64,000 bases of DNA, from the NCBI GenBank assembly GCA_016926475.1, contig JAFGON010000040.1, positions 10,849-74,848 on the forward strand, read 5' to 3'. Position 1 is the first letter of the stretch; the number at the start of each line of letters is the position of its first letter. Made by a program: the position numbers and the translations under genes. Positions 3-37,695 of the stretch are shown here, in pieces. Below the pieces are notes generated by a model, which ran no database searches, was not told the origin of the DNA, and saw only the letters and a list, made by a program, of their open reading frames with translations. The DNA comes from a candidate division WOR-3 bacterium. Its GTDB lineage: Bacteria; SDB-A.

Positions 3-869
3 CATCCGCTTGTTTTCGGCAACGGTTACGACGCCATAGGCCTCTTGATGAGCGCTGAGCTTTCCTTTTCTGTCATCGCCCTGATGATATTTCTCAAGAT
101 TGCGGCGACTTCTTTTACAATTGGTTCTGGCGGATCCGGAGGCGTTTTTGCCCCTTCTCTTGTAATCGGAGCGATGACCGGCGGAGCTTTCGGAATGATT
201 GTGAGCGGATTTTTCCCTTCTCTGACTGCCGGGTTTCAGGCATACGCGATCGTCGGCATGGCGGCAGTTTTCGCGGGTATGAGCAGGGCGACTCTTACAG
301 CGATAATAATGGTTTTCGAGATGACCGGAAACTACAATATTATTATGCCTCTCATGCTTTCATGCGTGATAAGCGATATTCTGGCTGTCGTCACTCTGAA
401 AGGGAGTATCTACACCATAAAGTTGAAAAGGAGAGGTATTAATATTGAACATGACATGGAAATAAACGTGCTGGACACGGTAAAAGCCGGAGAAATTATT
501 GAAAGACAATCTGCTGTATTTTCCGAAAATGACACCATGGAATATGCCGTTTCTCTTGTGGCTAACACAAGCCAGAGAATTTTTCCTATCCTGAGGGAGA
601 ATGTCGTGAAAGGCGTGGTTTCAGAACATGAAATCTTGTCTTGTAAGGACAGACGCCAAAAGTATGTGAAAGATATAATGCGAAGCGACTTTGTCCAAGT
701 GTTTTCGGATCAGACGCTCGAAGAGATTTTGACGAAGTACTCATCCGAGGACACCTCTGCTTATGTGGTAGTCGAAGAAGAGAAAAAGCTTTTCCTGGGG
801 TTGATAACTCCCGAGGAGATCCTTCAAATTTACGGGGAGAAGAAACGGGCTCTTCTCAAGAAAATATGA
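3..869 (+). CDS. ClC-family chloride channel, C-terminal part with tandem CBS domains (5' end lies outside the window)
   Basis: The frame is open from the window edge. It contains GSGGSGGVFAPSLVIGAMTGGAFG, a ClC helix/selectivity-type motif, and a hydrophobic TM stretch. Two CBS-like repeats follow (VLDTVKAGEII..., VKDIMRSDFVQVF...). Confidence 0.7.
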   Translation, partial: HPLVFGNGYDAIGLLMSAELSFSVIALMIFLKIAATSFTIGSGGSGGVFAPSLVIGAMTGGAFGMIVSGFFPSLTAGFQAYAIVGMAAVFAGMSRATLTAIIMVFEMTGNYNIIMPLMLSCVISDILAVVTLKGSIYTIKLKRRGINIEHDMEINVLDTVKAGEIIERQSAVFSENDTMEYAVSLVANTSQRIFPILRENVVKGVVSEHEILSCKDRRQKYVKDIMRSDFVQVFSDQTLEEILTKYSSEDTSAYVVVEEEKKLFLGLITPEEILQIYGEKKRALLKKI

Positions 870-899
870 TCCGTCTTTAGGTCGGGATTTTGTGAAAAG

Positions 900-2942
900 T
901 CATTTTGTTTTTGGTCTTTTGAAAGAAATAAACCACTGCCTTTTTTTGCGTGCCGGATGAATGGAAGTCCAGAGCGCGTCTGGAAGGTATTGAACAGTTT
1001 CGCAGTAGTTGCATTTGACGTTTCTCGGAGTTTGAGGGGTAATTTTCAGGGGAGCTCCGCATTTGATGCAGCTTATTGAAACCGGTTCAACCCTGCTTTC
1101 AATTTCAGAATCTTCGCTTTGCCTTTCCGCGCTAAAGAGCTGAGCGTCTCCAACTAAATTCTTTAATTCATCGGGGGCGGGGAAAGAAGAATTGTTTTCC
1201 CCGCAAGACCGGCATTGGATAAATGAATCTTTGCCAAAGGGGTAAAGGTCTACTTCGAGTTCAGCCCCGCATTTTGCGCATTTTGGGTTTGTCAAGATTT
1301 TTTCGACTGTCAAATCATGGTATGTGAGCCGTCTTGTGACTCCAAGGTCGGACACCATGACGGTATTCCAAAAATCCGTACCGAGGTCTACCTTAGAAAG
1401 ACAAGATCTGCATTTAACCCAATTCAAGAGTCCGTTGACAAAAAGAGGCTGACTGCAGAAGGGGCATTTCATCTCGATTTTTAAACCCATGAATTCCGGT
1501 TTGAGTTCGTCGAATCTTGTCTTTGCTCTCTCTTTGACGCGGGGGTTGTCTGTTTTATTAAAAACCTCCCAAAGCAGGTGTCTTTTGGGTATGGAATCTA
1601 CCGCAATAAGAGAGACCGAAGTCTTGAAGTAGTTTATCGCGATATCCGTCAGTGTCTTTTCGTTTTCTATTCTGTGTATCGCGGCTTTGCACACCGAAGG
1701 GTCATCGTCTTCTCTTAAAATTCCGAGCAGAAAATCTTCTCCCGGTTTTCTAAGGTGTTCAATTGAAGCGACCCTGCCCTGAAAATGCTTTGAATTTCTG
1801 GAAAGTTCTTTTAAGACGTCGTCGTCTTGGATAAGCGACGCGAGTATTCTCGCGGTTGAGAGAGAACTCTCGTCTGAAAGCAAATCGCGTATCTCGGGAA
1901 TGCTGTCTCTTTGCAGCTTGTGTGCCGCGGTATGTTTTATGGTTTCATCCCGGGATTTCTTGATTATTCGAATCAAAGTCGATTGCCTGCGAGATTTATT
2001 CGCCAAAGCCATCAGAACAGGGCTGTTGTCTTCCCTTTGGGAGCGGCTCTCGAGAAAATCTTCGTCGGCGTCGAACTTCAGGATGGCTTTCGCCCTTATT
2101 TCGTCGCTTTTTGCGTCGACTGCTATTTTTTTCAGATGTCTCGCTATGTTTTTTCTGTTCAGCAGGTCAGAGGCGATTTTGTGGTTGTCTGTTTTCAAAG
2201 CTATATCGAGCAACAAATCTTCGTCTTCAATCCTTTCCACAGCCAGCCAATGAACGTCTGTCAGGTTTTCATCAAGGGCGATTTTGCGGAGTTTTTCCTG
2301 ATCTTTGATCAGAGACACAGCGGTTTCTTTAGCTTTGAAAGCAGGGTCTTTCATGGCGATTTCGAAAAGCGTGTTTTCGTTTTTAATCCGGGCTATATGC
2401 TTTGTCCTGAAGTCGACAAAACTGTGTTTCCACCGCGGCCTGAATATGTCCGCAATTTTGAACCTGACCTTGAATTTGTCCCTCTGGGAGAAAAGGAAAA
2501 GGTAAACGGCGACCCAAAAACCCGTCCAGACCAAAAACGGCATCGGATCGGAATAGACTTTCAAGAAAAGGTCTTCCAGACCGCTGAAAATTGAACTTGG
2601 TCTGACGACCCTGTAATACCCGATTCCATTCATTCCCATCATGGCGAATCCCAGCGCCATCTGACCCACGGCGGCGCAGATCCCTGCGGCGAATTGGCCA
2701 ACGCAGAAATAACCCACGGAAAATTGGGAAAGTGTCAGAAAACCCAAGCCGAACTGACCAATGAATACTATTCCTGTGCCGAACTGAGCAAGAGTTACCA
2801 CGCCCGTCCCCGCAAAACCGATAGAGAAAAAACCTTTTGAAAGAAAGCCTATTGAAATCAAAGGCATTCCGAAAATTCTGATTTTTGAATTCCACATAAA
2901 TTCTCCTGATTTGTAAATTGATTTTATACATGTTTGCCGCAA
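900..2942 (-). CDS. Hypothetical membrane-anchored HEAT-repeat protein with three C-terminal CxxC...CxxC zinc ribbons
   Basis: This is a 680-aa ORF. The N-terminus has glycine-zipper-like repeats (GQFGLGF, VGQFAAG, GxxxG) consistent with TM helices. The central region has repeated DxxxVRxxAxxxL-type HEAT/PBS-lyase-like units. The C-terminus has CPFCS...CRSC, CAKCG...CRSCG and CIKCG...CNYC. No family was recognised. Confidence 0.5.
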   Translation of the reverse strand: MRQTCIKSIYKSGEFMWNSKIRIFGMPLISIGFLSKGFFSIGFAGTGVVTLAQFGTGIVFIGQFGLGFLTLSQFSVGYFCVGQFAAGICAAVGQMALGFAMMGMNGIGYYRVVRPSSIFSGLEDLFLKVYSDPMPFLVWTGFWVAVYLFLFSQRDKFKVRFKIADIFRPRWKHSFVDFRTKHIARIKNENTLFEIAMKDPAFKAKETAVSLIKDQEKLRKIALDENLTDVHWLAVERIEDEDLLLDIALKTDNHKIASDLLNRKNIARHLKKIAVDAKSDEIRAKAILKFDADEDFLESRSQREDNSPVLMALANKSRRQSTLIRIIKKSRDETIKHTAAHKLQRDSIPEIRDLLSDESSLSTARILASLIQDDDVLKELSRNSKHFQGRVASIEHLRKPGEDFLLGILREDDDPSVCKAAIHRIENEKTLTDIAINYFKTSVSLIAVDSIPKRHLLWEVFNKTDNPRVKERAKTRFDELKPEFMGLKIEMKCPFCSQPLFVNGLLNWVKCRSCLSKVDLGTDFWNTVMVSDLGVTRRLTYHDLTVEKILTNPKCAKCGAELEVDLYPFGKDSFIQCRSCGENNSSFPAPDELKNLVGDAQLFSAERQSEDSEIESRVEPVSISCIKCGAPLKITPQTPRNVKCNYCETVQYLPDALWTSIHPARKKRQWFISFKRPKTK

Positions 2943-3037: not shown

Positions 3038-5248
3038 ATGCCCAAGCAGGTCATAATATTCGCTTTGCTGGCTTTTTTCGGGTTTTCCTGCAGGGAAATA
3101 GGCACTCAACAAAACAACTTGCCGGACATCGTCAAACCCATCAACTCGCCAACCGAAAGAGTGTCAATGGAAAATGTCGAAATTACGACTGATTTTGGAA
3201 AGCAATTCTATGAGACCACACCTTACAGGTCCGAACCTGGAATGAAAACCGCTGGCCTGCCTTTTGACCAGAACGAAATAATAAACCTCGATGAAGTCCT
3301 GGCTTTCTCCGGCTTATCTTCTGTTCCCGCGGAACTGCTTCAAAACGGATTCATCATTTACACAGGTAAAAACCTTGGAGACAATCCTGTCGAAGCGTTT
3401 GAGATCGTAGAGAGCGCGGACCAGCCCGTTTATGTATCGTCGGGGATACCCCTTCATCTCATGCACATTTTTTTCGACAACTCGCTTAAATACTTGGAAG
3501 AAAAATTTATCTACGCGGATTTATTTGAAGTAATGGAGCATATATACAAAAAAAACATCGAAAGGGGAAATCAAACCGCCGCTTCATACGCCGGTGTTGC
3601 TCTCAAGCTTCTTGAACCGGATTACGAACTCGACATATCGGTTTCGGGTATGGTCGATCAGGAGCTGAAATTGATTGAAGAACACTCGGGTTTTGCGCAG
3701 AGTAACATTTTTGGGTACAAAGAAGATTTTTCCCAATACGTGCCAAGAGGACACTACCCCGCGAGCGATTCACTTAAAAGGTATTTCAAGGCGATGATGT
3801 GGCTTGGAAGGATGACTTTTCCACTTCATGGAAACCAAGGTCAGCAGGATATGTACCTCGTCTCAAACGAGGAAGCAATCTACCTCACTGCTACAGCTCT
3901 GCAGATAGTATCCGATCTTTGCTCCGACACGGCTCCTGACGGATCCAAGTACATAGACAAGTGGCGTAAAATATATACTCTGACAGCTTTCTTCGCCGGT
4001 TTTTCGGACGACATGTCTGTTCCAGAATACGCTGAAGCTTTTCGTGAAGCCACAGACCAGGAATTGACCGCCGGGGAGATATACACAGAGGAATTTCATG
4101 GAAAGATAGCACAAGTTTTGAAAAAATATTCTGATTCAAAAATATACAGCGGAACTGGGAGCCTTGTCTCAATGCCGGATTCCTCAGGAAATTTCGACCC
4201 TGAAGATTTGGATAAAGCTTTGACTATAACCCAGGGTTTCAGGCTTTTCGGCCAGAGATACACATTCGACAGTGAAGTTCTCGGCAAGATGGTCTTCCCG
4301 ACCGTGGGATACAACAGACAGGGAAATCAGCGCTTCATGCCATCCGGACTCGACATCGGAGCAGTATTTGGAAGCAGGAAAGCTTACGAAATACTCTGTA
4401 TTAGAGGCGACACGGCGTTTGCCGATTACGACAAATCACTTCAGTTCATGAAGGATAAAATCGGGAGTTTCGATCAGGATTTTTGGCATCAGACTCTTTA
4501 CAACAACTGGCTTTTGTGCGCACGCCTTGTTTTAAAAGACAAGGGCGAGGGCTACGCGGATTTCCTGAGGACTGAAGCTTGGCAGAACCATTGCCTGTCA
4601 AATTTTCTCGCCTCATGGTCCGCCCTTAGGCACGACAACATTCTATACGTAAAACAGAGCTACACCATGGAAGCTGGGTGCGCTCCTAATGATGAACCAT
4701 ACATCCCTCCGCCTCCCTCCGCAGGTTTTGTAGAACCTGTTCCTGAAGTCTACGCTGAAATACTATCCGTTCTCAACATGCTCCAAAGCGCCCTGGAATC
4801 TTACGGCTATTTCGACGAAGAGCTGAGCTACAAGTTCGAAATGGCGAATTACATGATGGAGACGGTCAAGGAGATATCCGAAAAAGAGCTCTCCGGAGAG
4901 GCGATAACCGCAGAAGAAGCGGATTTTCTGAAAAGTTTTTCTTCCGGTCTTGGAAACGCGATTTCCTCCGGAGGAGAACTATCCGAAGGAACCCAGACGA
5001 GTCTGGTGGCTGATGTCCACACTGACCAGAACAGCTCGTCGGTTCTCGAAGTCGCTTCAGGAAATCTCGACCTGGCTGTCGTAGTGTACGCCAGACCGGA
5101 TGGATACATTGAAGCCGCTATGGGGCCTGTCCTGAGCTACTGGGAGTTCACCTGGCCGATGAGCGACAGACTCACCGATGAGAAGTGGAGGAATTTGATT
5201 CGAGAAAATACAATCGCAAGACCGGAATGGGTCTATACCACCGATTGA
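3038..5248 (+). CDS. Hypothetical lipoprotein (large secreted protein, unknown function)
   Basis: Long ORF. The ATG at 3038 is preceded by aaaggagg. The signal peptide ends in a lipobox-like LLAFFGFSC. No catalytic motif was recognised. Confidence 0.5.
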   Translation: MPKQVIIFALLAFFGFSCREIGTQQNNLPDIVKPINSPTERVSMENVEITTDFGKQFYETTPYRSEPGMKTAGLPFDQNEIINLDEVLAFSGLSSVPAELLQNGFIIYTGKNLGDNPVEAFEIVESADQPVYVSSGIPLHLMHIFFDNSLKYLEEKFIYADLFEVMEHIYKKNIERGNQTAASYAGVALKLLEPDYELDISVSGMVDQELKLIEEHSGFAQSNIFGYKEDFSQYVPRGHYPASDSLKRYFKAMMWLGRMTFPLHGNQGQQDMYLVSNEEAIYLTATALQIVSDLCSDTAPDGSKYIDKWRKIYTLTAFFAGFSDDMSVPEYAEAFREATDQELTAGEIYTEEFHGKIAQVLKKYSDSKIYSGTGSLVSMPDSSGNFDPEDLDKALTITQGFRLFGQRYTFDSEVLGKMVFPTVGYNRQGNQRFMPSGLDIGAVFGSRKAYEILCIRGDTAFADYDKSLQFMKDKIGSFDQDFWHQTLYNNWLLCARLVLKDKGEGYADFLRTEAWQNHCLSNFLASWSALRHDNILYVKQSYTMEAGCAPNDEPYIPPPPSAGFVEPVPEVYAEILSVLNMLQSALESYGYFDEELSYKFEMANYMMETVKEISEKELSGEAITAEEADFLKSFSSGLGNAISSGGELSEGTQTSLVADVHTDQNSSSVLEVASGNLDLAVVVYARPDGYIEAAMGPVLSYWEFTWPMSDRLTDEKWRNLIRENTIARPEWVYTTD

Positions 5249-5279
5249 AAATTGCTGATTCAATAGAAGGTTGAAGACG

Positions 5280-6872
5280 ATGAAAAAAATAATTTTTCTG
5301 ATGGCTTTATCCGCCTCGCTGCAGGCGGAAACTATTAGGGTTGCGATCGCCGCGACTTCGGATCTTCAGAGCGTTTTGGTGCCGTACGAGTTGAAAATCG
5401 GAGACTCTGTTTTCACGGTCGGAGGATTCAGCAGGATATCTTCCTTTAAAAATAACCTCGAAAGCGATACTGCCCTCGACGGGGTCTTTCTCGTATCTTC
5501 GGGGGATGACTTCATCAACCCCATTTATTCGGTTTTTTCCGGGCAACCTGAAGTCAGAGGCATGAACTTAGCCCGTTATGACGTCTATTGTCCGGGAAAC
5601 CACGAATTCGACAACGGAACAAAGATGTTTTCAAACGCCATTTCAGAAGCCGAATTTGAAATAGTCTGTGCCAACATCACCTTTTCAGACAGCGCGCTAA
5701 ACGAAATTGTCAAAGACTATTCCACGTTTGAAATCGAGGGAGTGAAAATTGGATTTTTCGGTTTGATGACCCCGGATTTTTTTAAATTGACTAATCCCGG
5801 AGATTCACAGGTTTTCATGACCGAAGATATTTTTAAAGTCGCCGAGAGGGCGGTTGTCGAATTGGAATCTCTGGGATGCGGCGCGGTCATAGGTGTGACG
5901 CACACCGGTTTCAGGATTGACAGTTTGCTGGCTGAAAATGTCGAGGGCATCGACCTTATTATCGGAGGACACGACCACACCCAGTATTATGAGTACGTCA
6001 ACGGAGTCGCTCTCGTCCAGAACGGTGCTGGTTCGCAGACGATCGGAACCCTGTTTCTGACTTTCGAGGATGATTCTCTGAAGGTTATAGACTTTTGTTC
6101 GCGATACCTCGATTCGACAGTCGGTGAAGACGAGTTTGTCAGGGAAGAGATGGACGAATACTATGAAAAATACCAGGAAAGCCTTTCGGAGAAAATTGGC
6201 GTTTCTTTGACTTCTTTCGACACGAGAAAAGAAGTCGTGCGAGGAAAAGAGTCCAGTATCGGCGATCTGATATGCGACTCGTGGCTCTATTGGTTGGATG
6301 AAACCGATATCGCATTTATAAACGGCGGCTCTATAAGAGGAGACAGGGAGTTTCCGCCCGGAGACATAACCTACGGAACAATAGCTGAACTTCTGCCGTT
6401 CAGAAACGAAATAATTGAATTGAAAATGACTGGCAGCCAGATCAAGAGCGTTCTTGAGGTTTCAGCCTCGGGTCAGCTCGGGGCTCCCAACAACTGTCCG
6501 GATTCCATGAGAGCTTCATACGGAGGCTTTCTGCAGGTCGGTGGCATAAGATTTGTCATCGACACTTCCAAAGTTTCTTTCTGCGGCGTTTATTCGGGAA
6601 GAAACTTGATCGAAATCGTCGAACCCGGCGAGCGAATAAGCGAGGTGGAGGTTTTCGAAGACGGGAAATGGCTGGAACTCGAGTTGGACGGTCAATACAC
6701 CGTCATAGTCAGCGACTGGATAGCCGGGGGTGGAGACGGGCATTATGTTTTTTTGGACTCCTCGTTGGAGAGGGAATCGACTTCTATATACGCTCCTGAT
6801 CCGTTGTTGAACTTCATCCTGGAAAAAGGTGAAATCGAATTTTTTCCGGATGGAAGGATAAAAGTCAAGTAA
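5280..6872 (+). CDS. Secreted 5'-nucleotidase / UDP-sugar hydrolase-like metallophosphoesterase
   Basis: Signal peptide MKKIIFLMALSASLQA. Calcineurin-like motifs GNHEFD and GGHDHT, followed by a 5'-nucleotidase C-terminal-like domain. agaagg lies upstream of the ATG at 5280; the track's earlier start is a TTG. Confidence 0.8.
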   Translation: MKKIIFLMALSASLQAETIRVAIAATSDLQSVLVPYELKIGDSVFTVGGFSRISSFKNNLESDTALDGVFLVSSGDDFINPIYSVFSGQPEVRGMNLARYDVYCPGNHEFDNGTKMFSNAISEAEFEIVCANITFSDSALNEIVKDYSTFEIEGVKIGFFGLMTPDFFKLTNPGDSQVFMTEDIFKVAERAVVELESLGCGAVIGVTHTGFRIDSLLAENVEGIDLIIGGHDHTQYYEYVNGVALVQNGAGSQTIGTLFLTFEDDSLKVIDFCSRYLDSTVGEDEFVREEMDEYYEKYQESLSEKIGVSLTSFDTRKEVVRGKESSIGDLICDSWLYWLDETDIAFINGGSIRGDREFPPGDITYGTIAELLPFRNEIIELKMTGSQIKSVLEVSASGQLGAPNNCPDSMRASYGGFLQVGGIRFVIDTSKVSFCGVYSGRNLIEIVEPGERISEVEVFEDGKWLELELDGQYTVIVSDWIAGGGDGHYVFLDSSLERESTSIYAPDPLLNFILEKGEIEFFPDGRIKVK

Positions 6873-28981: not shown

Positions 28982-29690
28982 CAAAAGCTCCTACAAGAAG
29001 ATTTCTCTCGATCTGAAAAAAGCGAAAAATCGTGAAAAAGCTTTTATCCTCCAGAAATTTTTCAAGACCGGCAGAGGCGAATACGGCGAAGGTGATGTCT
29101 TCTACGGGATTACAGTTCCGTACCTGAGAAAATTATCTGCAAGATTCGCAGGAGCGGATTTTTTCGTTCTCGAAAAATTGCTCGAATCTGAAATTCACGA
29201 GGAAAGAACGCTCGCTTTGTTCATACTCATCAGAAAATTCGAAAATGGGAACGAAAGCGACAGAAAAGCGGTATTCAAAATTTATTTCAAGAAGAAAAAA
29301 CGCGTGAATAACTGGGACCTTGTTGATTTGTCGGCCCCGAAAATCGTCGGAGCGTATCTTGAGGACAAAGACAGATCTCTGCTTTACAAACTGGCGGCCT
29401 CGAAAAACCTCTGGGAGAGAAGAATCGCCGTTATATCCACCTACACTTTCATTAAAAAAGGTGATTTCAAAGACGCGTTGAACCTGTCGGAAATCCTACT
29501 TGACGAAAAACATGACCTCATCCACAAAGCGACAGGATGGATGCTCAGGGAAATAGGAAAGAAAGACGAAAGCGTTTTGTTGAAATTTCTGGAAAAGCAC
29601 TGCGCGAAAATGCCCAGAACCATGCTCAGGTATTCGATCGAAAAGCTGGACACTAAAAGAAGAAAATATTATCTCGGAAAAAAACAATAA
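28971..29690 (+). CDS. DNA alkylation repair (AlkC/AlkD-like HEAT-repeat) protein
   Basis: NNWDLVDLSAPKIVGAYL, WERRIAVIST and IHKATGWMLREIGKKD match the DNA_alkylation family. TTG start overlapping the upstream stop. Confidence 0.6.
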   Translation: MSSDKSSYKKISLDLKKAKNREKAFILQKFFKTGRGEYGEGDVFYGITVPYLRKLSARFAGADFFVLEKLLESEIHEERTLALFILIRKFENGNESDRKAVFKIYFKKKKRVNNWDLVDLSAPKIVGAYLEDKDRSLLYKLAASKNLWERRIAVISTYTFIKKGDFKDALNLSEILLDEKHDLIHKATGWMLREIGKKDESVLLKFLEKHCAKMPRTMLRYSIEKLDTKRRKYYLGKKQ

Positions 29691-29716
29691 AAAGGGGGCT
29701 TGCGCCCCCTTTTTTA
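29691..29716. terminator. Bidirectional intrinsic terminator between convergent genes
   Basis: aaaaa-GGGGGC-ttgc-GCCCCC-tttttt gives a perfect 6-bp GC stem with an A-run 5' and a T-run 3', so it works on both strands. It overlaps the stop of the minus-strand T9SS gene. Confidence 0.7.
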
Positions 29717-31606
29717 TTCGACAAAGATAAGTTTTACCTGACCTGAATTTTCACCGGCTGTAACTTTCACGAAATAAACTCCCCGGGTCAATTCTTGTCC
29801 CTGGTTGTCATTTCCGTTCCAGTGAACTGTCATCAGTCTGTCAGCGTCGTTCAGACCGAAGTTGAACTCGCGGACTGTTCTACCGGATACGTCGAATATC
29901 TCGACCTCTGAGAGAATCCCAGCCGGCGAGGTGAAAGAGATGAGAACATTCTTTACGAAAGGATTTGGAGAGGCAGTCAAAGCGACCCATGAAGAATTGA
30001 CAGGTGGCTGCTCCGCCACAGCGTTCAGACCGTCGAGGAAGAAAACCATTATGGAGTCGAGAATGTCCGCTCTCGTCGAGGCATCTGCTGCGTCAGTGAG
30101 CATTCCGAGCTCGAAACTGGTTCCAACCGTCCTGTAAGTCGCGGTTTGATTCGCAACTCCGCAGTTGTAGTTGTCGTTTCCGTCGCTGAAAATCACAAAT
30201 CCGGTACCGGTCGCGTTGATTTGGTCAATGTAGCTGTTTTCACCGGCATAGGCGAAATTCATGGAGTTGGTGAATGTTCCGGACGCGCCGACGACTGGTC
30301 CAAGATTCCCGGAACCGTCTGCTACCGCCTGGATTCCGAAAACCGGACCAAAATTGTGGCCGCCTCCGTAACTGGGGTCGTAAAACCACATGTCACCGCC
30401 TTCCATGTAGGCGCATCCCCCGTTGTTGATAAAATCTATTATCGAGGTAGCTATGGCTCCCCCCGATGATATTACGGTATTGTTTGGATAGACGCCAAGG
30501 CAAACAAAAATGGATTTGAAAAAAGATAAATCCGAAGGCAGTTGAATTGAATGTATTCCGGAGTAACCGATTGCGCTGAGAATACTGTCAATTTTGATTC
30601 CGGATCCGGCAGATGGATCGAGATTTAAAACGAGGTAACTGTATTTTCCGACGGTAAGGTCGAACGAGAAGGTGTCGCAGAAACCCGCGTCTGTTACAAC
30701 AAGGTTGAAAGCGGCTTCATACCCTTCCGGTGTTGAAACGTCCACAGAAAGGTTGAATGGATCAGAGACGTTCGTCTTTGTGCTGTCTATCGACAACGGG
30801 CCGAACACTGCGCTGTTGTCGTTTATTGTTATGTTGGGATCAGAAGAAGATAAAACGGAAGTGATGTTCGTGAAATTTGTCCCTCCGACGTTTTTGATGG
30901 TCGCCAGAAGGTTAGCTGTTTCACCGGGGTCCAACCTGCCGTTGCTGTTACCGGCAGCGTCGTCGACAGTTGTACTCAATAAAACAAGATAAGGGGTTGA
31001 CCCTGAATAGGAAAGTGTTATTTCATCGGCGGAGACCTCCGCCAGTTCTGAACCCCCTCAACAGTCGTAGGTAGAGTCGAATAGAGCAATTTCAATTTTG
31101 TTTACTTGCAGGGGATCTACACCTGTCAGATTTGTAAGTTCGGTGCCGACGTTAAAAGAGTAATTGTGCCACTGGGAGTCGACGGCTTGTATCAAGTGCA
31201 TCGTTGGTGAGTTCGCCCAAGGACAGTAGCTGGTCTTTGAACAGATCCTGGTCTGACCGAGGACGTTGCCGGATATATCGAGGTACTTCAGACTCAGTGC
31301 AGTTCCTGCCCAAGCTGTCGAAGTCGCGTAAGCGTAAAGTCTGACGCTTGCCGAAAATACAATGTCGGTTGTGGGAACTGTAACTGTCTGGTTTAAAAGG
31401 GCGTATCCGCCTCCATCGGTTTTGCGGACCATTACTTCGTAATCAGGGTCGGGGTCATAGTTAGTCGCCCGGTTTACACTCGCTCCGGATCCGTTGAGAA
31501 TCTGTTTCCATCCCACGGAGAGATCTTGCTCAAAGTCGCCGTTGACTACGTATTGGGATGTTGAAAAACCGATCAGCAAAGACAGGATTACGGACAGCAT
31601 AGGCAT
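29714..31606 (-). pseudogene. T9SS-sorted secreted protein interrupted by a single in-frame TGA (possible nonsense mutation, sequencing error or recoding site)
   Basis: The upstream part (31058..31606) has an RBS (gaggagg) and the signal peptide MPMLSVILSLLIGFSTS. The downstream part (29714..30979) is in the same frame and lacks both an ATG and a signal peptide; the track's M there is TTG. It ends with a T9SS C-terminal domain (SPNPF...GVYFVKV...KLIFVE). The only stop between the two parts is the TGA at ~31058-31060. Confidence 0.6.
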
Positions 31607-31663
31607 ACCTCCTCGTTTGGTTGGATCTAATTCTAATAGTCCGGCAAAACGAAAGCAACGGCT

Positions 31664-33090
31664 TTAGACGTAAGAAGGAATTTTGTATTTAATCCATCCC
31701 CCTCTTTTGTAAAAAACAAAAAGAAACAGGGATTCAATCAGTAGTGAAAAGCCAATTCCTGACCATACCCCGACTACGTCGAGGAAAAGGTGTTTTGCGA
31801 GAAAGTAGGAAAGGGGGAGCTTGATAAGCCAATTTGCTATTATCGAGGTTATCAGAGGAGGAACATTGTATCCTGACCCTCTGTGGACAGCGTTGAAAGT
31901 CGCGGAAAGAGGATAGAAAAGGAGAGAAATTCCAATTATTTTCAGATACGAGGAGCCACTTTTTACTACCGAGGGATTGACGCTGAAAACTTTCGTCAAT
32001 TCTTCCGAAAAGACAAAAATCAGCGAGCAGGTGATTATCTGAACCAGATACCCCATTCTCAACGACCGCAGAACTACCTCTCTGGCTTTATCAATATTTT
32101 TTTGCCGAGGAGCTGACCGATAAAAGTCTGAACAGCCATCATCAGACCGTCCATGTAAATGAAAGTTACTCCTATTATTCTGCTGCCAATTCCAAAAGCG
32201 GCTATAGATATGTCTCCGTAGAAGGACACTATTTTGTATATCAGCATACCGGTCACCGGCCTTGTAATCCCAAAGAAAAAAGCCGGAATTCCGGTTTTTA
32301 AAAAACTAATGGATAAATCCTTTTGAAAAGAGGGTTTAACGGCGCCGAATTTTTTTAGAAAAAAAAACGTGAACAGAGAAAAACCAATCAGAATCGAGAC
32401 AGAAGAAGCTATCGCGGCTCCAGAAGTTTCCAATCTCGGGAAGAAAAACCAACCGAAAATAAAAAAAGGGTCGAGTAGGATGTTTATAAGCAGAGTCGTT
32501 ATCGTCAGTTTCATCGGGGTTTTGGAATCTCCGGTTCCGAAAAATATATTATACATTATGTCCAGTATGAAGAGAAAAGCGAAACCAAGGAGCATTATTC
32601 GCATGTATGTTTTTGCCTGGGAGAGAACTTCACCTTTGGCTCCGAAAAAACTTAGAATTTGATCTGAAAACAAAATTGAGGGCACGATCAAAACCAGGGC
32701 AATCAGAATCGAGAAAAAAAGTGAAATTGAAATGCTTTTTTTCAGAAGCTCCGTGTCTTTTGAACCATAAGCTCTTGAGACGAAAGCTATGGCTCCAGAA
32801 GAAACAAGAGTCATGGAAGATATAAGAATAAACAAAAACGATCCGACCATGCTCACAGCGGCGACCGAGATATGACCAAGTTTTCCTATCCAGAACATAT
32901 CTGTGACATCGAGCAGTGTGAATGCGAGTGATGATACCATCACAGGCCAGGAAAGATTCCAGATGTTGCCGTAGGTAATATTTTCCGGATCGAAATTTCT
33001 TGTATTTTCAACCATATTTTCAACTTTTCTTTTTAAGTTTTGCGATGATTTCCCAATAGAGTATAATGATATTAAAAATTTATAAAGCAT
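31664..33090 (-). pseudogene. MATE-family efflux transporter split by a frameshift (32062/32074)
   Basis: The 338-aa N-terminal ORF (NIWNLSWPVMVSSLAFTLLDVTDMFWIGKLG) and the 132-aa C-terminal ORF are both MATE-like and together reach the expected ~450 aa. They are in different frames with an 11-nt gap. Confidence 0.7.
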
Positions 33091-36881: not shown

Positions 36882-37229
36882 TGGTGGAGGCGGCGGGAAT
36901 CGAACCCGCGTCCGAGAGAGTAGCCTTCAAGGCTTCTACATGCTTATCCCGAAATTTGTTCTCGTCCCAAAAAACTCCATCGGGAAAGATTTTTCCAGGA
37001 CCAGCGCTGTTTGTTTCCTCCCTCCCCGCGCGCGAAGTTCAGGAGTAGCCCATCTGTGTGACCCCTGACATTCTTTGTGATAGGCGACAAAGAAGCAGAG
37101 GAGCCGCTTAGTTAAGCAGCCAAAGAATAACTGCTGTTGGCAGTTGATTTTTTGCCGTTTTTTGACGAGCTTCGGCGGCCCGGCATGCGACCCTGAGACA
37201 TTCAGTCCCGTCGAGACCATTTCGCCCCC
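36882..37229 (-). ncRNA. ssrA: tmRNA (SsrA)
   Basis: Minus-strand 5' end GGGGGCGAAAUGGUCUCGACGGG. The 3' tRNA-like end is ...GGACGCGGGUUCGAUUCCCGCCGCCUCCACCA. The internal tag reading frame ends ...GCC AAC AGC AGU UAU UCU UUG GCU GCU UAA. Confidence 0.85.
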
Positions 37230-37328
37230 TTCTTAAGTAAAGATATCTATAAAAGATAAAAAGTCAAGCTCTTAAGCCTTCATTGAACTTGACACAATAA
37301 AGCGTTGTGTTAGAATGCTTTCGAAAAT

Positions 37329-37418
37329 GGAGAGATGTCCGAGTGGTCGAAGGAGCACGATTGGAAATCGTGTAGGGGGTTAGTAGCTCCCTCGTGGGTT
37401 CGACTCCCACTCTCTCCG
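37329..37418 (+). tRNA. tRNA-Ser (anticodon GGA), class II with long variable arm
   Basis: Acceptor GGAGAGA/TCTCTCC. Anticodon stem-loop cacga-TTGGAAA-tcgtg. Long extra arm. T-arm GGTTCGACTCC. Confidence 0.85.
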
Positions 37419-37695
37419 AAAGTATTATCTCAGAGAAAACATTCGAAGAATTTGTTCTGAAACCCAGTGGGCGGGAGCGGTTTTAAAAAGAAATTTCCCG
37501 CTCTTAATAATATTTTCCTTCCCTTACAATCACAAAGTTTTGTATTTTTTGTGAATCTTTTCACAAACTCAAAAAAAGAAATTGAAAATATCCTTGTTCA
37601 CTGGGATAATCAAGCGAGATATTTTAAGATATGAAAAACAGATATAATTTACCAGTTTTTTTCACCACCCAAATTTTATGTCAAAAGGAGAAAAT

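Follow-up and report, generated by a model that had tools for sequence, protein, structure and literature searches.

A conserved in-frame TGA and a covarying SECIS-like hairpin in genes for predicted type IX-secreted proteins of candidate division WOR-3 bacteria

We analysed a stretch of 64,000 nucleotides from a candidate division WOR-3 bacterium (assembly GCA_016926475.1, contig JAFGON010000040.1, positions 10,849 to 74,848 of the forward strand; hereafter the window). The gene of interest lies on its minus strand and consists of two open reading frames (ORFs) in the same frame, the second of which ends in a sorting domain of the type IX secretion system (T9SS). We conclude from comparative sequence evidence that the UGA between them (31060..31058) is very probably recoded as selenocysteine (Sec), by a mechanism that involves SelB together with a SECIS (selenocysteine insertion sequence), giving a T9SS cargo protein of about 628 residues. 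Sec recoding had also been the preferred reading of an initial annotation of this DNA, and the conservation of the TGA, the covariation of a hairpin downstream of it and the presence of Sec machinery in genomes that carry the gene family bear it out.

The minus-strand frame is open from the ATG to a TAA at 29714 and is interrupted solely by the TGA, in agreement with the initial annotation. That annotation also described an upstream ORF of 182 residues with a ribosome-binding site. The binding site (GGAGG) stands, but of the two possible ATGs, at 31606 and 31600, the second appears the likelier start, because GGAGG is well spaced from it and because the database call for the upstream ORF (P0121, 180 residues) begins there. 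The N-terminus, MLSVILSLLIGFSTSQ, is hydrophobic and, judged by eye, resembles a signal peptide. At the junction the peptide reads ...FDSTYDC-TGA-GGSELAEVSADEITLSY..., or, quoted more briefly, ...STYDC-TGA-GGSELAEVSADE.... The downstream ORF was correctly described as having 421 residues, a TTG start, no signal peptide of its own and a C-terminal T9SS domain; the last matches TIGR04183 with 38.3 bits (cutoff 23, E=9.4e-10) and PF18962 with 28.7 bits (cutoff 27), and PF13860 also matches the C-terminus. No terminator- or promoter-like site was found on the minus strand between the TGA and the downstream ORF. Genome-wide reassignment of TGA (genetic code 4 or 25) was considered and rejected: TGA is the commonest stop codon in the window, where it ends 15 of the 30 long ORFs, and the genetic code is therefore standard.

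Homologous loci were retrieved using peptide patterns from the N-terminal domain, far upstream of the hairpin, which gave 60 loci in GTDB genomes and a further 79 in metagenomes. An in-frame TGA is present at the aligned site, or no more than 1-3 codons from it, in all 57 GTDB loci that span the site and in all 79 metagenome loci, and none of these 136 loci has Cys or any other sense codon there. Of the two states that the initial annotation had envisaged for orthologues at this position, TGA and Cys, only the first was thus encountered. Protein databases reflect the same interruption. A profile search with the N-terminal domain gave 187 protein matches, and the 120 that were listed are all 165-203 residues long, so ending at the TGA. 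A search with the fused sequence returned many 'T9SS sorting domain' proteins of 420-445 residues, whose called N-termini lie at M/L-A-[EK]-V-[FS]-A-D-D, five codons past the TGA. The lone full-length homologue in the databases, P0002 (628 residues; JGI Ga0190293_1015397, locus L001 102..1988), has W at the Sec site in the protein and TGA in the DNA. It was rejected as a Trp-containing homologue, as the W derives from a gene call over the TGA in genetic code 4, a model evidently picked because the contig is short; other entries of this kind could pass for Trp-containing homologues.

These observations bear directly on the idea that the TGA is a nonsense mutation, marking a pseudogene, or a sequencing or assembly error confined to the metagenome-assembled genome (MAG) from which the window comes. 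At least one frameshift or error is indeed present in the MAG, since the neighbouring MATE gene is split between two frames while its orthologue at the syntenic WOR-3 locus L002 is intact. However, the TGA recurs in 136 of 136 loci from many genomes and metagenomes, tandem paralogues included; at L002 itself there are two tandem paralogues of the family gene, each reading ..TGT TGA GG.. and followed by an identical hairpin. Both halves of the gene are under clear purifying selection (50-74% amino-acid identity). Read support, which the initial annotation had named as a check, is provided by an independent Logan assembly of the raw reads (run SRR13394437), in which the window's gene has the same TGA and the same hairpin, and an artefact of a shared pipeline is implausible across sources as diverse as NCBI, JGI, ENA and Logan. 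We give a defect private to this MAG practically no credence.

The hairpin GGCGGA-GGUC-UCCGCC is present where the initial annotation placed it, 14 nt past the UGA, with its loop starting 20 nt past the UGA. It can be extended by one U·G pair in the window; the 'bulged U' and 'C-G extension' proposed initially are not conserved, and the hairpin of the family is a plain 6-bp stem. Across the family, a perfect 6-bp stem with a GGUC loop begins 14 nt (or 11 nt) past the TGA in 135 of the 136 loci. The exception is L121 (about 1203..1260), which has GGCGCA-GUUA-UGCGCC at an equal distance from the TGA, with the peptide ..AQLCADD.., and may represent a variant SECIS or a decaying one. A single-sequence fold of the 86-nt window region is unremarkable (z = -0.22); the window alone therefore cannot establish the hairpin, and comparison is needed.

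For this comparison we used an alignment of 64 distinct 60-nt segments, a few of which had been gathered with a regular expression for the hairpin; sets of loci selected by homology agree with the result. All 384 base-pair cells (100%) are occupied by standard pairs, compared with 20-61% after the 3' partners have been slid by 1-3 columns, and RNAalifold independently gives the same helix. Four of the six pairs show compensatory changes. Both sides have changed in 42 cells, compared with a mean of 8.8 ± 2.1 in shuffled alignments (0 of 500 shuffles were as high), a contrast that has to be discounted somewhat, as the sequences are related and both binomial and shuffle statistics overstate their independence. 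Part of the covariation is synonymous, Ala GCG/GCA/GCT being combined with Phe TTC/TTT or Leu TTA. The outer pair is made up of two third-codon positions (G-C in 48 segments, C-G in 7, A-U in 6, U-A in 1 and G·U in 2). Residue pairs track the base pairing: K..F occurs 84 times, E..S 25 times, R..L 14 times and E..F, which implies a G·U pair, 14 times, and K..S, which would give an A-C mismatch, is never seen. Codon choice is similarly skewed. The Val codon of the loop is GTC in 140 of 141 copies, although GTC accounts for just 33% of the Val codons in the remainder of these genes. For the 5' Ala codon, 88% of copies use GCG, compared with a background of 26%; the loop is GGUC in 140 of 142 copies. 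Together, these sequence patterns argue that the hairpin is selected as RNA. The putative SECIS is written into the codons of the last β-strand of the jelly-roll domain that begins in the upstream ORF, so that RNA and protein constraints would act on the same 16 nucleotides, with a SECIS doubling as the last strand of a lectin-like domain.

The published consensus for bacterial SECIS elements is a stem-loop directly downstream of the UGA, with a G in its small apical loop (PMC1088965). The gene to which the initial annotation had compared the hairpin, fdhF of E. coli K-12, has, when read from the genome, a UGA followed after 18 nt by a GGUC loop closed by A-U (GCA-GGUC-UGC). In both cases an in-frame UGA is followed by a short stem-loop within the coding sequence. 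The apex A-GGUC-U and its spacing are shared, the loop starting 18 nt past the UGA in fdhF and 17 or 20 nt past it in the present family, where it is mostly closed by A-U; the likeness does not extend to the bulged U. The family stem also differs in consisting of six perfect, mostly G-C pairs without a lower helix. The host proteins are unrelated, that of fdhF being a cytoplasmic molybdoenzyme and ours a predicted secreted β-sandwich, and Sec in the family is not a metal-cofactor ligand of a known active site.

As in the fdhF system, genes for SelA, SelB and tRNA-Sec are found in genomes that carry the family. At four loci (L085, L108, L115 and L126) selA, selB and tRNA-Sec(UCA) all lie no more than 10 kb upstream of a family gene, and the SelA proteins encoded there are 38-42% identical to E. 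coli SelA over the full length of the latter. At a fifth locus, L022, tRNA-Sec(UCA) alone lies 1.5 kb upstream of the family gene (detected by ARAGORN, and with 74 bits by Rfam RF01852). Contig JACUUY010000021.1 holds selA-selB and the family gene of L009, and the complete chromosome CP070802.1 holds selA-selB and two family genes (L036). When the SelB of L085 was used as a query, the best 120 matches, at 61-100% identity, were annotated as 'selenocysteine-specific translation elongation factor' with SelB winged-helix domains; the matches listed come from WOR-3, Stahlbacteria and 'Latescibacteria' MAGs. Some candidates had to be discarded. A search of the window and the first 62 loci with E. 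coli SelA, SelB and SelD gave only weak matches, a PurM-superfamily gene (L029) and a GTPase-domain match (L032), and a SelB considered for the window's own MAG (P0287) turned out to belong to another assembly, GCA_013139425.1.

A conserved UGA with downstream structure is also seen at some programmed read-through sites. The UGA might accordingly be read independently of Sec, a near-cognate tRNA (Trp or Cys) or a dedicated suppressor inserting a standard residue while the hairpin slows the ribosome or hinders release factor 2. It would fit this explanation that there is no Cys homologue at the site and no Rfam SECIS match, and that selenium incorporation is deduced from sequence. On the other hand, a mere roadblock needs no fixed loop, whereas GGUC is fixed here at a synonymous site and matches the fdhF apex and its distance from the UGA; selA, selB and tRNA-Sec are linked to family genes in the loci just described; and although Trp, Cys or Gly would be specified more simply by a sense codon, none of the 136 loci uses one. 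We regard Sec-independent read-through as very unlikely.

Sec recoding makes the two ORFs one gene, and the predicted protein structure agrees with this. An AlphaFold2 model of the homologue P0002, made with an alignment of 8 N-domain and 55 C-terminal sequences, has a pLDDT (predicted local distance difference test) score of 87.9; an earlier model, from a deep alignment of the N-domain only, had placed everything after Sec at low confidence. The P0002 model comprises an N-terminal β-sandwich (high confidence), immunoglobulin (Ig)-like domains, an α/β domain and the C-terminal sorting domain. The architecture of the gene, which recurs in 142 distinct homologous copies, is correspondingly a signal-like N-terminus, a Sec-bearing jelly roll, an Ig-like/CARDB-like domain, an α/β domain and a T9SS C-terminal domain. 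In the model the 13 residues directly after Sec form a long β-strand (residues 186-198). Foldseek relates the N-terminal part to carbohydrate-binding modules (CBM11/22/61), the sugar-binding domain of Fbs1 and GH2 N-terminal domains, but these matches are weak (E 1e-3 to 1e-10, low TM); one homologue has a precomputed PF02018 match, and the window protein is below threshold for every such Pfam model. The predicted fold and the final strand ...A.V.ADD[VI].L are shared with the CBM4/9/11/22/61, GH2 N-terminal and Fbs1 jelly rolls, but no known member of these CBM-like or galactose-binding-like modules has selenocysteine. A profile search of 1.84 billion representative proteins returned mostly calls of 180-195 residues that end at the site and a few longer, distant homologues without a TGA. 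In the latter nothing interrupts the run from the penultimate strand through a variable loop to the final strand A.V.ADD[VI].L. On the evidence of the model and the alignments, the TGA would lie inside one domain and both ORFs must belong to one polypeptide, because the strand just past the TGA is part of the jelly roll of the upstream ORF.

All annotation pipelines nevertheless call the locus as two genes, which would make it a secreted protein of 180 residues followed by an independently translated T9SS protein, with the hairpin acting in translational coupling, mRNA stability or attenuation. Even in true selenoprotein genes, a degree of termination at the UGA is to be expected. What speaks against two genes is that the halves always share a frame, that amino-acid conservation begins at the codon directly after the TGA (Gly in 78%), and that there is no conserved start codon or ribosome-binding site between the halves: where gene callers place 'M', the window has CTG and many homologues have ACG, and the calls in homologues begin at any TTG, CTG or GTG downstream of the TGA. 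Moreover, the downstream part has no signal peptide, yet a T9SS C-terminal domain requires export, and the final jelly-roll strand, which lies past the TGA, is contiguous with the rest of the domain in the homologues that lack a TGA. Two separate genes are a remote prospect. The alternatives to recoding listed in the initial annotation (nonsense mutation, assembly error and two genuine ORFs) are thus contradicted by the conservation, by the independent assembly and by the domain that spans the site.

Several results count against Sec recoding. The window contains no match to SelA, SelB or SelD and no tRNA-Sec, its only tRNA-like genes being those for tRNA-Ser, tRNA-Val and the transfer-messenger RNA (tmRNA). 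The window's closest relatives, the Zodletone MAGs, do not appear in the list of 120 SelB matches, and no selD orthologue was found by tblastn with E. coli SelD in 1.4 Mb of loci. The bulged U of the fdhF element has no counterpart in the family stem; this U17 and the loop residues G23 and U24 form a determinant for SelB in E. coli. As the hairpin overlaps a strand that is conserved in the protein, its sequence conservation is partly protein-driven. A covariance-model check, as suggested by the initial annotation, produced no Rfam SECIS match: there was none in the window at the gathering score, and none in 30900..31200 at E<=10. We did not count this last result in the final weighing, because Rfam has few bacterial SECIS models. 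Lastly, no Cys homologue at the Sec column was found among the 136 loci, the 120 listed of 187 protein matches, or the best 150 of 265 matches from the 1.84 billion representatives, and the distant homologues without a TGA have Ala, Asp, Pro or a gap at this column, never Cys. Cys homologues exist for nearly all known selenoproteins (PMC13188914).

According to the mechanism that we propose, translation would start at the ATG at 31600 and produce a nascent chain bearing the hydrophobic, signal-like N-terminus. The ribosome would not terminate at the UGA; instead, the hairpin 14 nt downstream would act as a SECIS and recruit SelB·GTP·Sec-tRNA(Sec), and Sec would be inserted. Translation would then go on through the last jelly-roll strand and the Ig-like, α/β and type IX C-terminal domains. 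The product, of about 628 residues, would be exported and is probably attached to the cell surface, and Sec would adjoin Cys (C-U-G) in the loop leading into the jelly roll's final strand. We infer both the binding of SelB to the hairpin and the physical incorporation of Sec from the features of the sequence, and the window's own genome presumably contains the Sec machinery. By analogy with other proteins, the Cys-Sec pair is suggestive of an extracellular selenenylsulphide redox centre or a binding site for soft metals or metalloids.

At least 142 distinct copies of the gene were catalogued, each consisting of about 185-220 codons, the TGA and about 440-555 further codons. Several genomes contain multiple paralogues (up to six or more per genome), and tandem pairs occur frequently. 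Sec is usually followed by Gly, as stated above. The Cys directly before the UGA, to which the initial annotation drew attention, is present in the window but is not a fixed feature: 75% of copies have Cys at this position, and the remainder have Gly, Asp, Ser or Thr. Nearly all copies have a further Cys as part of a 'CPW' motif. When the fused protein and the N-domain were scanned with Pfam and NCBIfam models, only the T9SS/FlgD tail was matched, and no model covers the Sec domain. A 2026 inventory of 119 prokaryotic selenoprotein families has no corresponding entry in its Table 1 (PMC13188914), and our literature search retrieved no paper that ties WOR-3 or type IX secretion to selenoproteins. 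Current discovery pipelines, such as Sargasso/GOS-style screens and deep-Sep, demand Cys homologues (PMC1088965, PMC12013277), which would explain why the family has been overlooked so far. While the recoding mechanism is already known, the family itself, as judged from these sequences, appears to be new, and it is predicted to be unusual in being secreted, in its non-thioredoxin fold and in having no Cys counterpart.

Bacterial selenoproteins outside the cytoplasm are not unprecedented. The Omp28-related selenoprotein (NF045500; 'hypothetical protein GOS_C', UxxC) and the FCYXU-type TonB-dependent receptor (NF049945) are similar to the present family in this respect, and Omp28-related and other envelope selenoproteins are listed in the 2026 inventory (PMC13188914). 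These envelope families differ from ours in that their fold is thioredoxin-like or that of DUF1223, their motif is UxxC and their CxxC homologues are abundant, whereas the present family has a CBM-like jelly roll, vicinal C-U, no Cys homologue and an N-terminal domain that matches nothing in NCBIfam or Pfam. Cys directly before Sec is found in SaoC, SaoL, HgcA-type proteins, MbdU, KCU-star and the GCUG end of animal thioredoxin reductase, and a vicinal pair of this kind may form a selenenylsulphide or chelate soft metals. There is no kinship in sequence or fold between these proteins and the present family, in which the Cys is not invariant; moreover, in the former the pair belongs to a flexible C-terminus or the gene to a metal-handling operon, whereas here the pair would be located in an internal β-sandwich loop of an exported protein.

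A wider proposal is that the loci define an undescribed, obligately Sec-containing family of surface proteins, secreted by the type IX route in WOR-3, Stahlbacteria and allied lineages and often encoded in islands with an Omp28-like UxxC protein and a second, C-U repeat protein, and in one lineage beside selA-selB-tRNA(Sec); Sec, usually accompanied by Cys, would provide an extracellular redox or metal site in an exposed lectin/CBM-like loop, without a Cys counterpart. We advance this proposal tentatively, as a possibility with somewhat more to be said against it than for it. If it is true, selenium would be used outside the cell in a non-thioredoxin fold that has no sulphur (Cys) counterpart in evolution, which may indicate new selenium chemistry. 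The family itself points to heavy selenium use among exported surface proteins in an uncultured phylum that is mostly anaerobic, and to selenoprotein genes being clustered in genomes with the Sec machinery. On the practical side, public annotation of the family would be wrong throughout, hundreds of genes having been cut into a 'hypothetical protein' and a 'T9SS sorting domain protein'. They could be repaired by a simple rule, namely a TGA with a GGUC-looped 6-bp stem 11 or 14 nt after it. Other obligate-Sec families may likewise escape pipelines that depend on Sec/Cys pairs. The features of the gene are collected in Table 1.

Table 1. Positions of the proposed selenoprotein gene and associated elements, numbered from the first letter of the window
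Feature	Position	Strand	Remarks
Full selenoprotein gene (proposed)	29714..31600	-	one frame with a lone internal TGA; ~628 residues; databases annotate 2 ORFs
GGAGG ribosome-binding site	31608..31612	-	read from sequence; 7 nt 5' of the second ATG (31600)
Upstream ORF as usually called, 180 residues + TGA	31058..31600	-	comprises the hydrophobic N-terminus and the greater part of the CBM-like jelly roll
In-frame TGA, proposed Sec codon, C-U-G context	31058..31060	-	kept in all 136 homologous loci
SECIS-like hairpin GGCGGA-GGUC-UCCGCC	31028..31043	-	begins 14 nt past the UGA; codes part of ..AEVSA.. (last jelly-roll β-strand)
Segment directly 3' of the Sec codon, GGSELAEVSADEITLSYSG	31001..31057	-	final β-strand of the jelly-roll domain
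Downstream ORF per NCBI, 421 residues, TTG start, MBN1150384.1 'T9SS type A sorting domain-containing protein'	29714..30979	-	database match
T9SS type A C-terminal sorting domain	29726..29971	-	TIGR04183, PF18962, PF13860; residues 546-627
Intrinsic-terminator-like hairpin and T-run at the stop codon of the gene	29689..29714	-	sequence scan

Distant jelly-roll homologues without a TGA include P0392, P0416, P0396, P0450 and P0467. P0392 has ..DGC-A-EGHCEAR.., which is close to the ..DGC-U-SGHCEAR.. of one subfamily, and may mark the boundary of a gain or loss of Sec. MAGs that carry the family are labelled not only as WOR-3 but also as Desulfuromonadaceae/Desulfuromonas sp. SDB, Cloacimonadota, Latescibacterota, Thermoanaerobaculales and Eisenbacteria (L003, L008, L011, L017, L019, L022, L035, L040, L052 and L054). 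Either some of these genomes are WOR-3-like but wrongly binned or labelled, or the family extends beyond WOR-3/Stahlbacteria.

Other candidate selenoprotein genes are found near family genes. At 36 loci, family genes are flanked by Omp28-related genes whose U-x-x-C motif contains an in-frame TGA and which have a conserved hairpin of their own (67 genes; examples are L022 3800 and 6977, L015 3943, 5024 and 10295, L027 8212 and 11324, and L085 9009 and 14057). Their hairpins are of two types, GCCAGUG-GNA-CACUGGC (type A) and GCGCUYGC-GGA-GCRAGCGC (type B). The genes match NF045500, 'Omp28-related selenoprotein', below its cutoff, and some have a T9SS C-terminal domain. In one lineage these genes form part of a 'selenoprotein island' (L085 439..10522, and likewise L108, L115, L126 and L022), in the order selA, selB, two to three genes including a glycosyltransferase-like ORF of 752 residues, tRNA-Sec, an Omp28-like UxxC gene, the family gene and more UxxC genes.

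A second candidate family has a signal peptide, about 100 residues, C-TGA, about 340 residues of YxVVW-type repeats and a T9SS C-terminal domain. It is present at L026(-)1293..2657, L029(-)3348..4658, L036(+)169..1524 and L042(+)4547..5908, and also at L082, L084 and L105. The hairpin GGAGUG-(CGUGU|GGUCU)-CACUCC is conserved 17 nt past the UGA, and the family has no match in Pfam or NCBIfam; judging by these features, it is apparently another undescribed selenoprotein. As clustering of in-frame TGA codons yielded many spurious clusters, from non-coding frames of conserved genes, only those with a clear motif and a conserved hairpin were kept.

Directly upstream of the window's family gene, on the same strand, lies the MATE efflux gene mentioned above (31664..33090, minus strand). 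It is split into an ORF of 338 residues (33090..32074) and an ORF of 132 residues (32062..31664) in different frames, whereas the syntenic orthologue at L002 is an intact MatE of 453 residues. The split is, from this comparison, a frameshift, reflecting either a pseudogene or a sequencing error in the MAG. Further along the window, a tmRNA gene (Rfam, 176 bits) adjoins a tRNA-Ser(GGA) gene, at 36882..37229 (-) and 37328..37419 (+), respectively. The same pair is found near the family gene of L003, indicating conserved synteny between the window and the L003 MAG.

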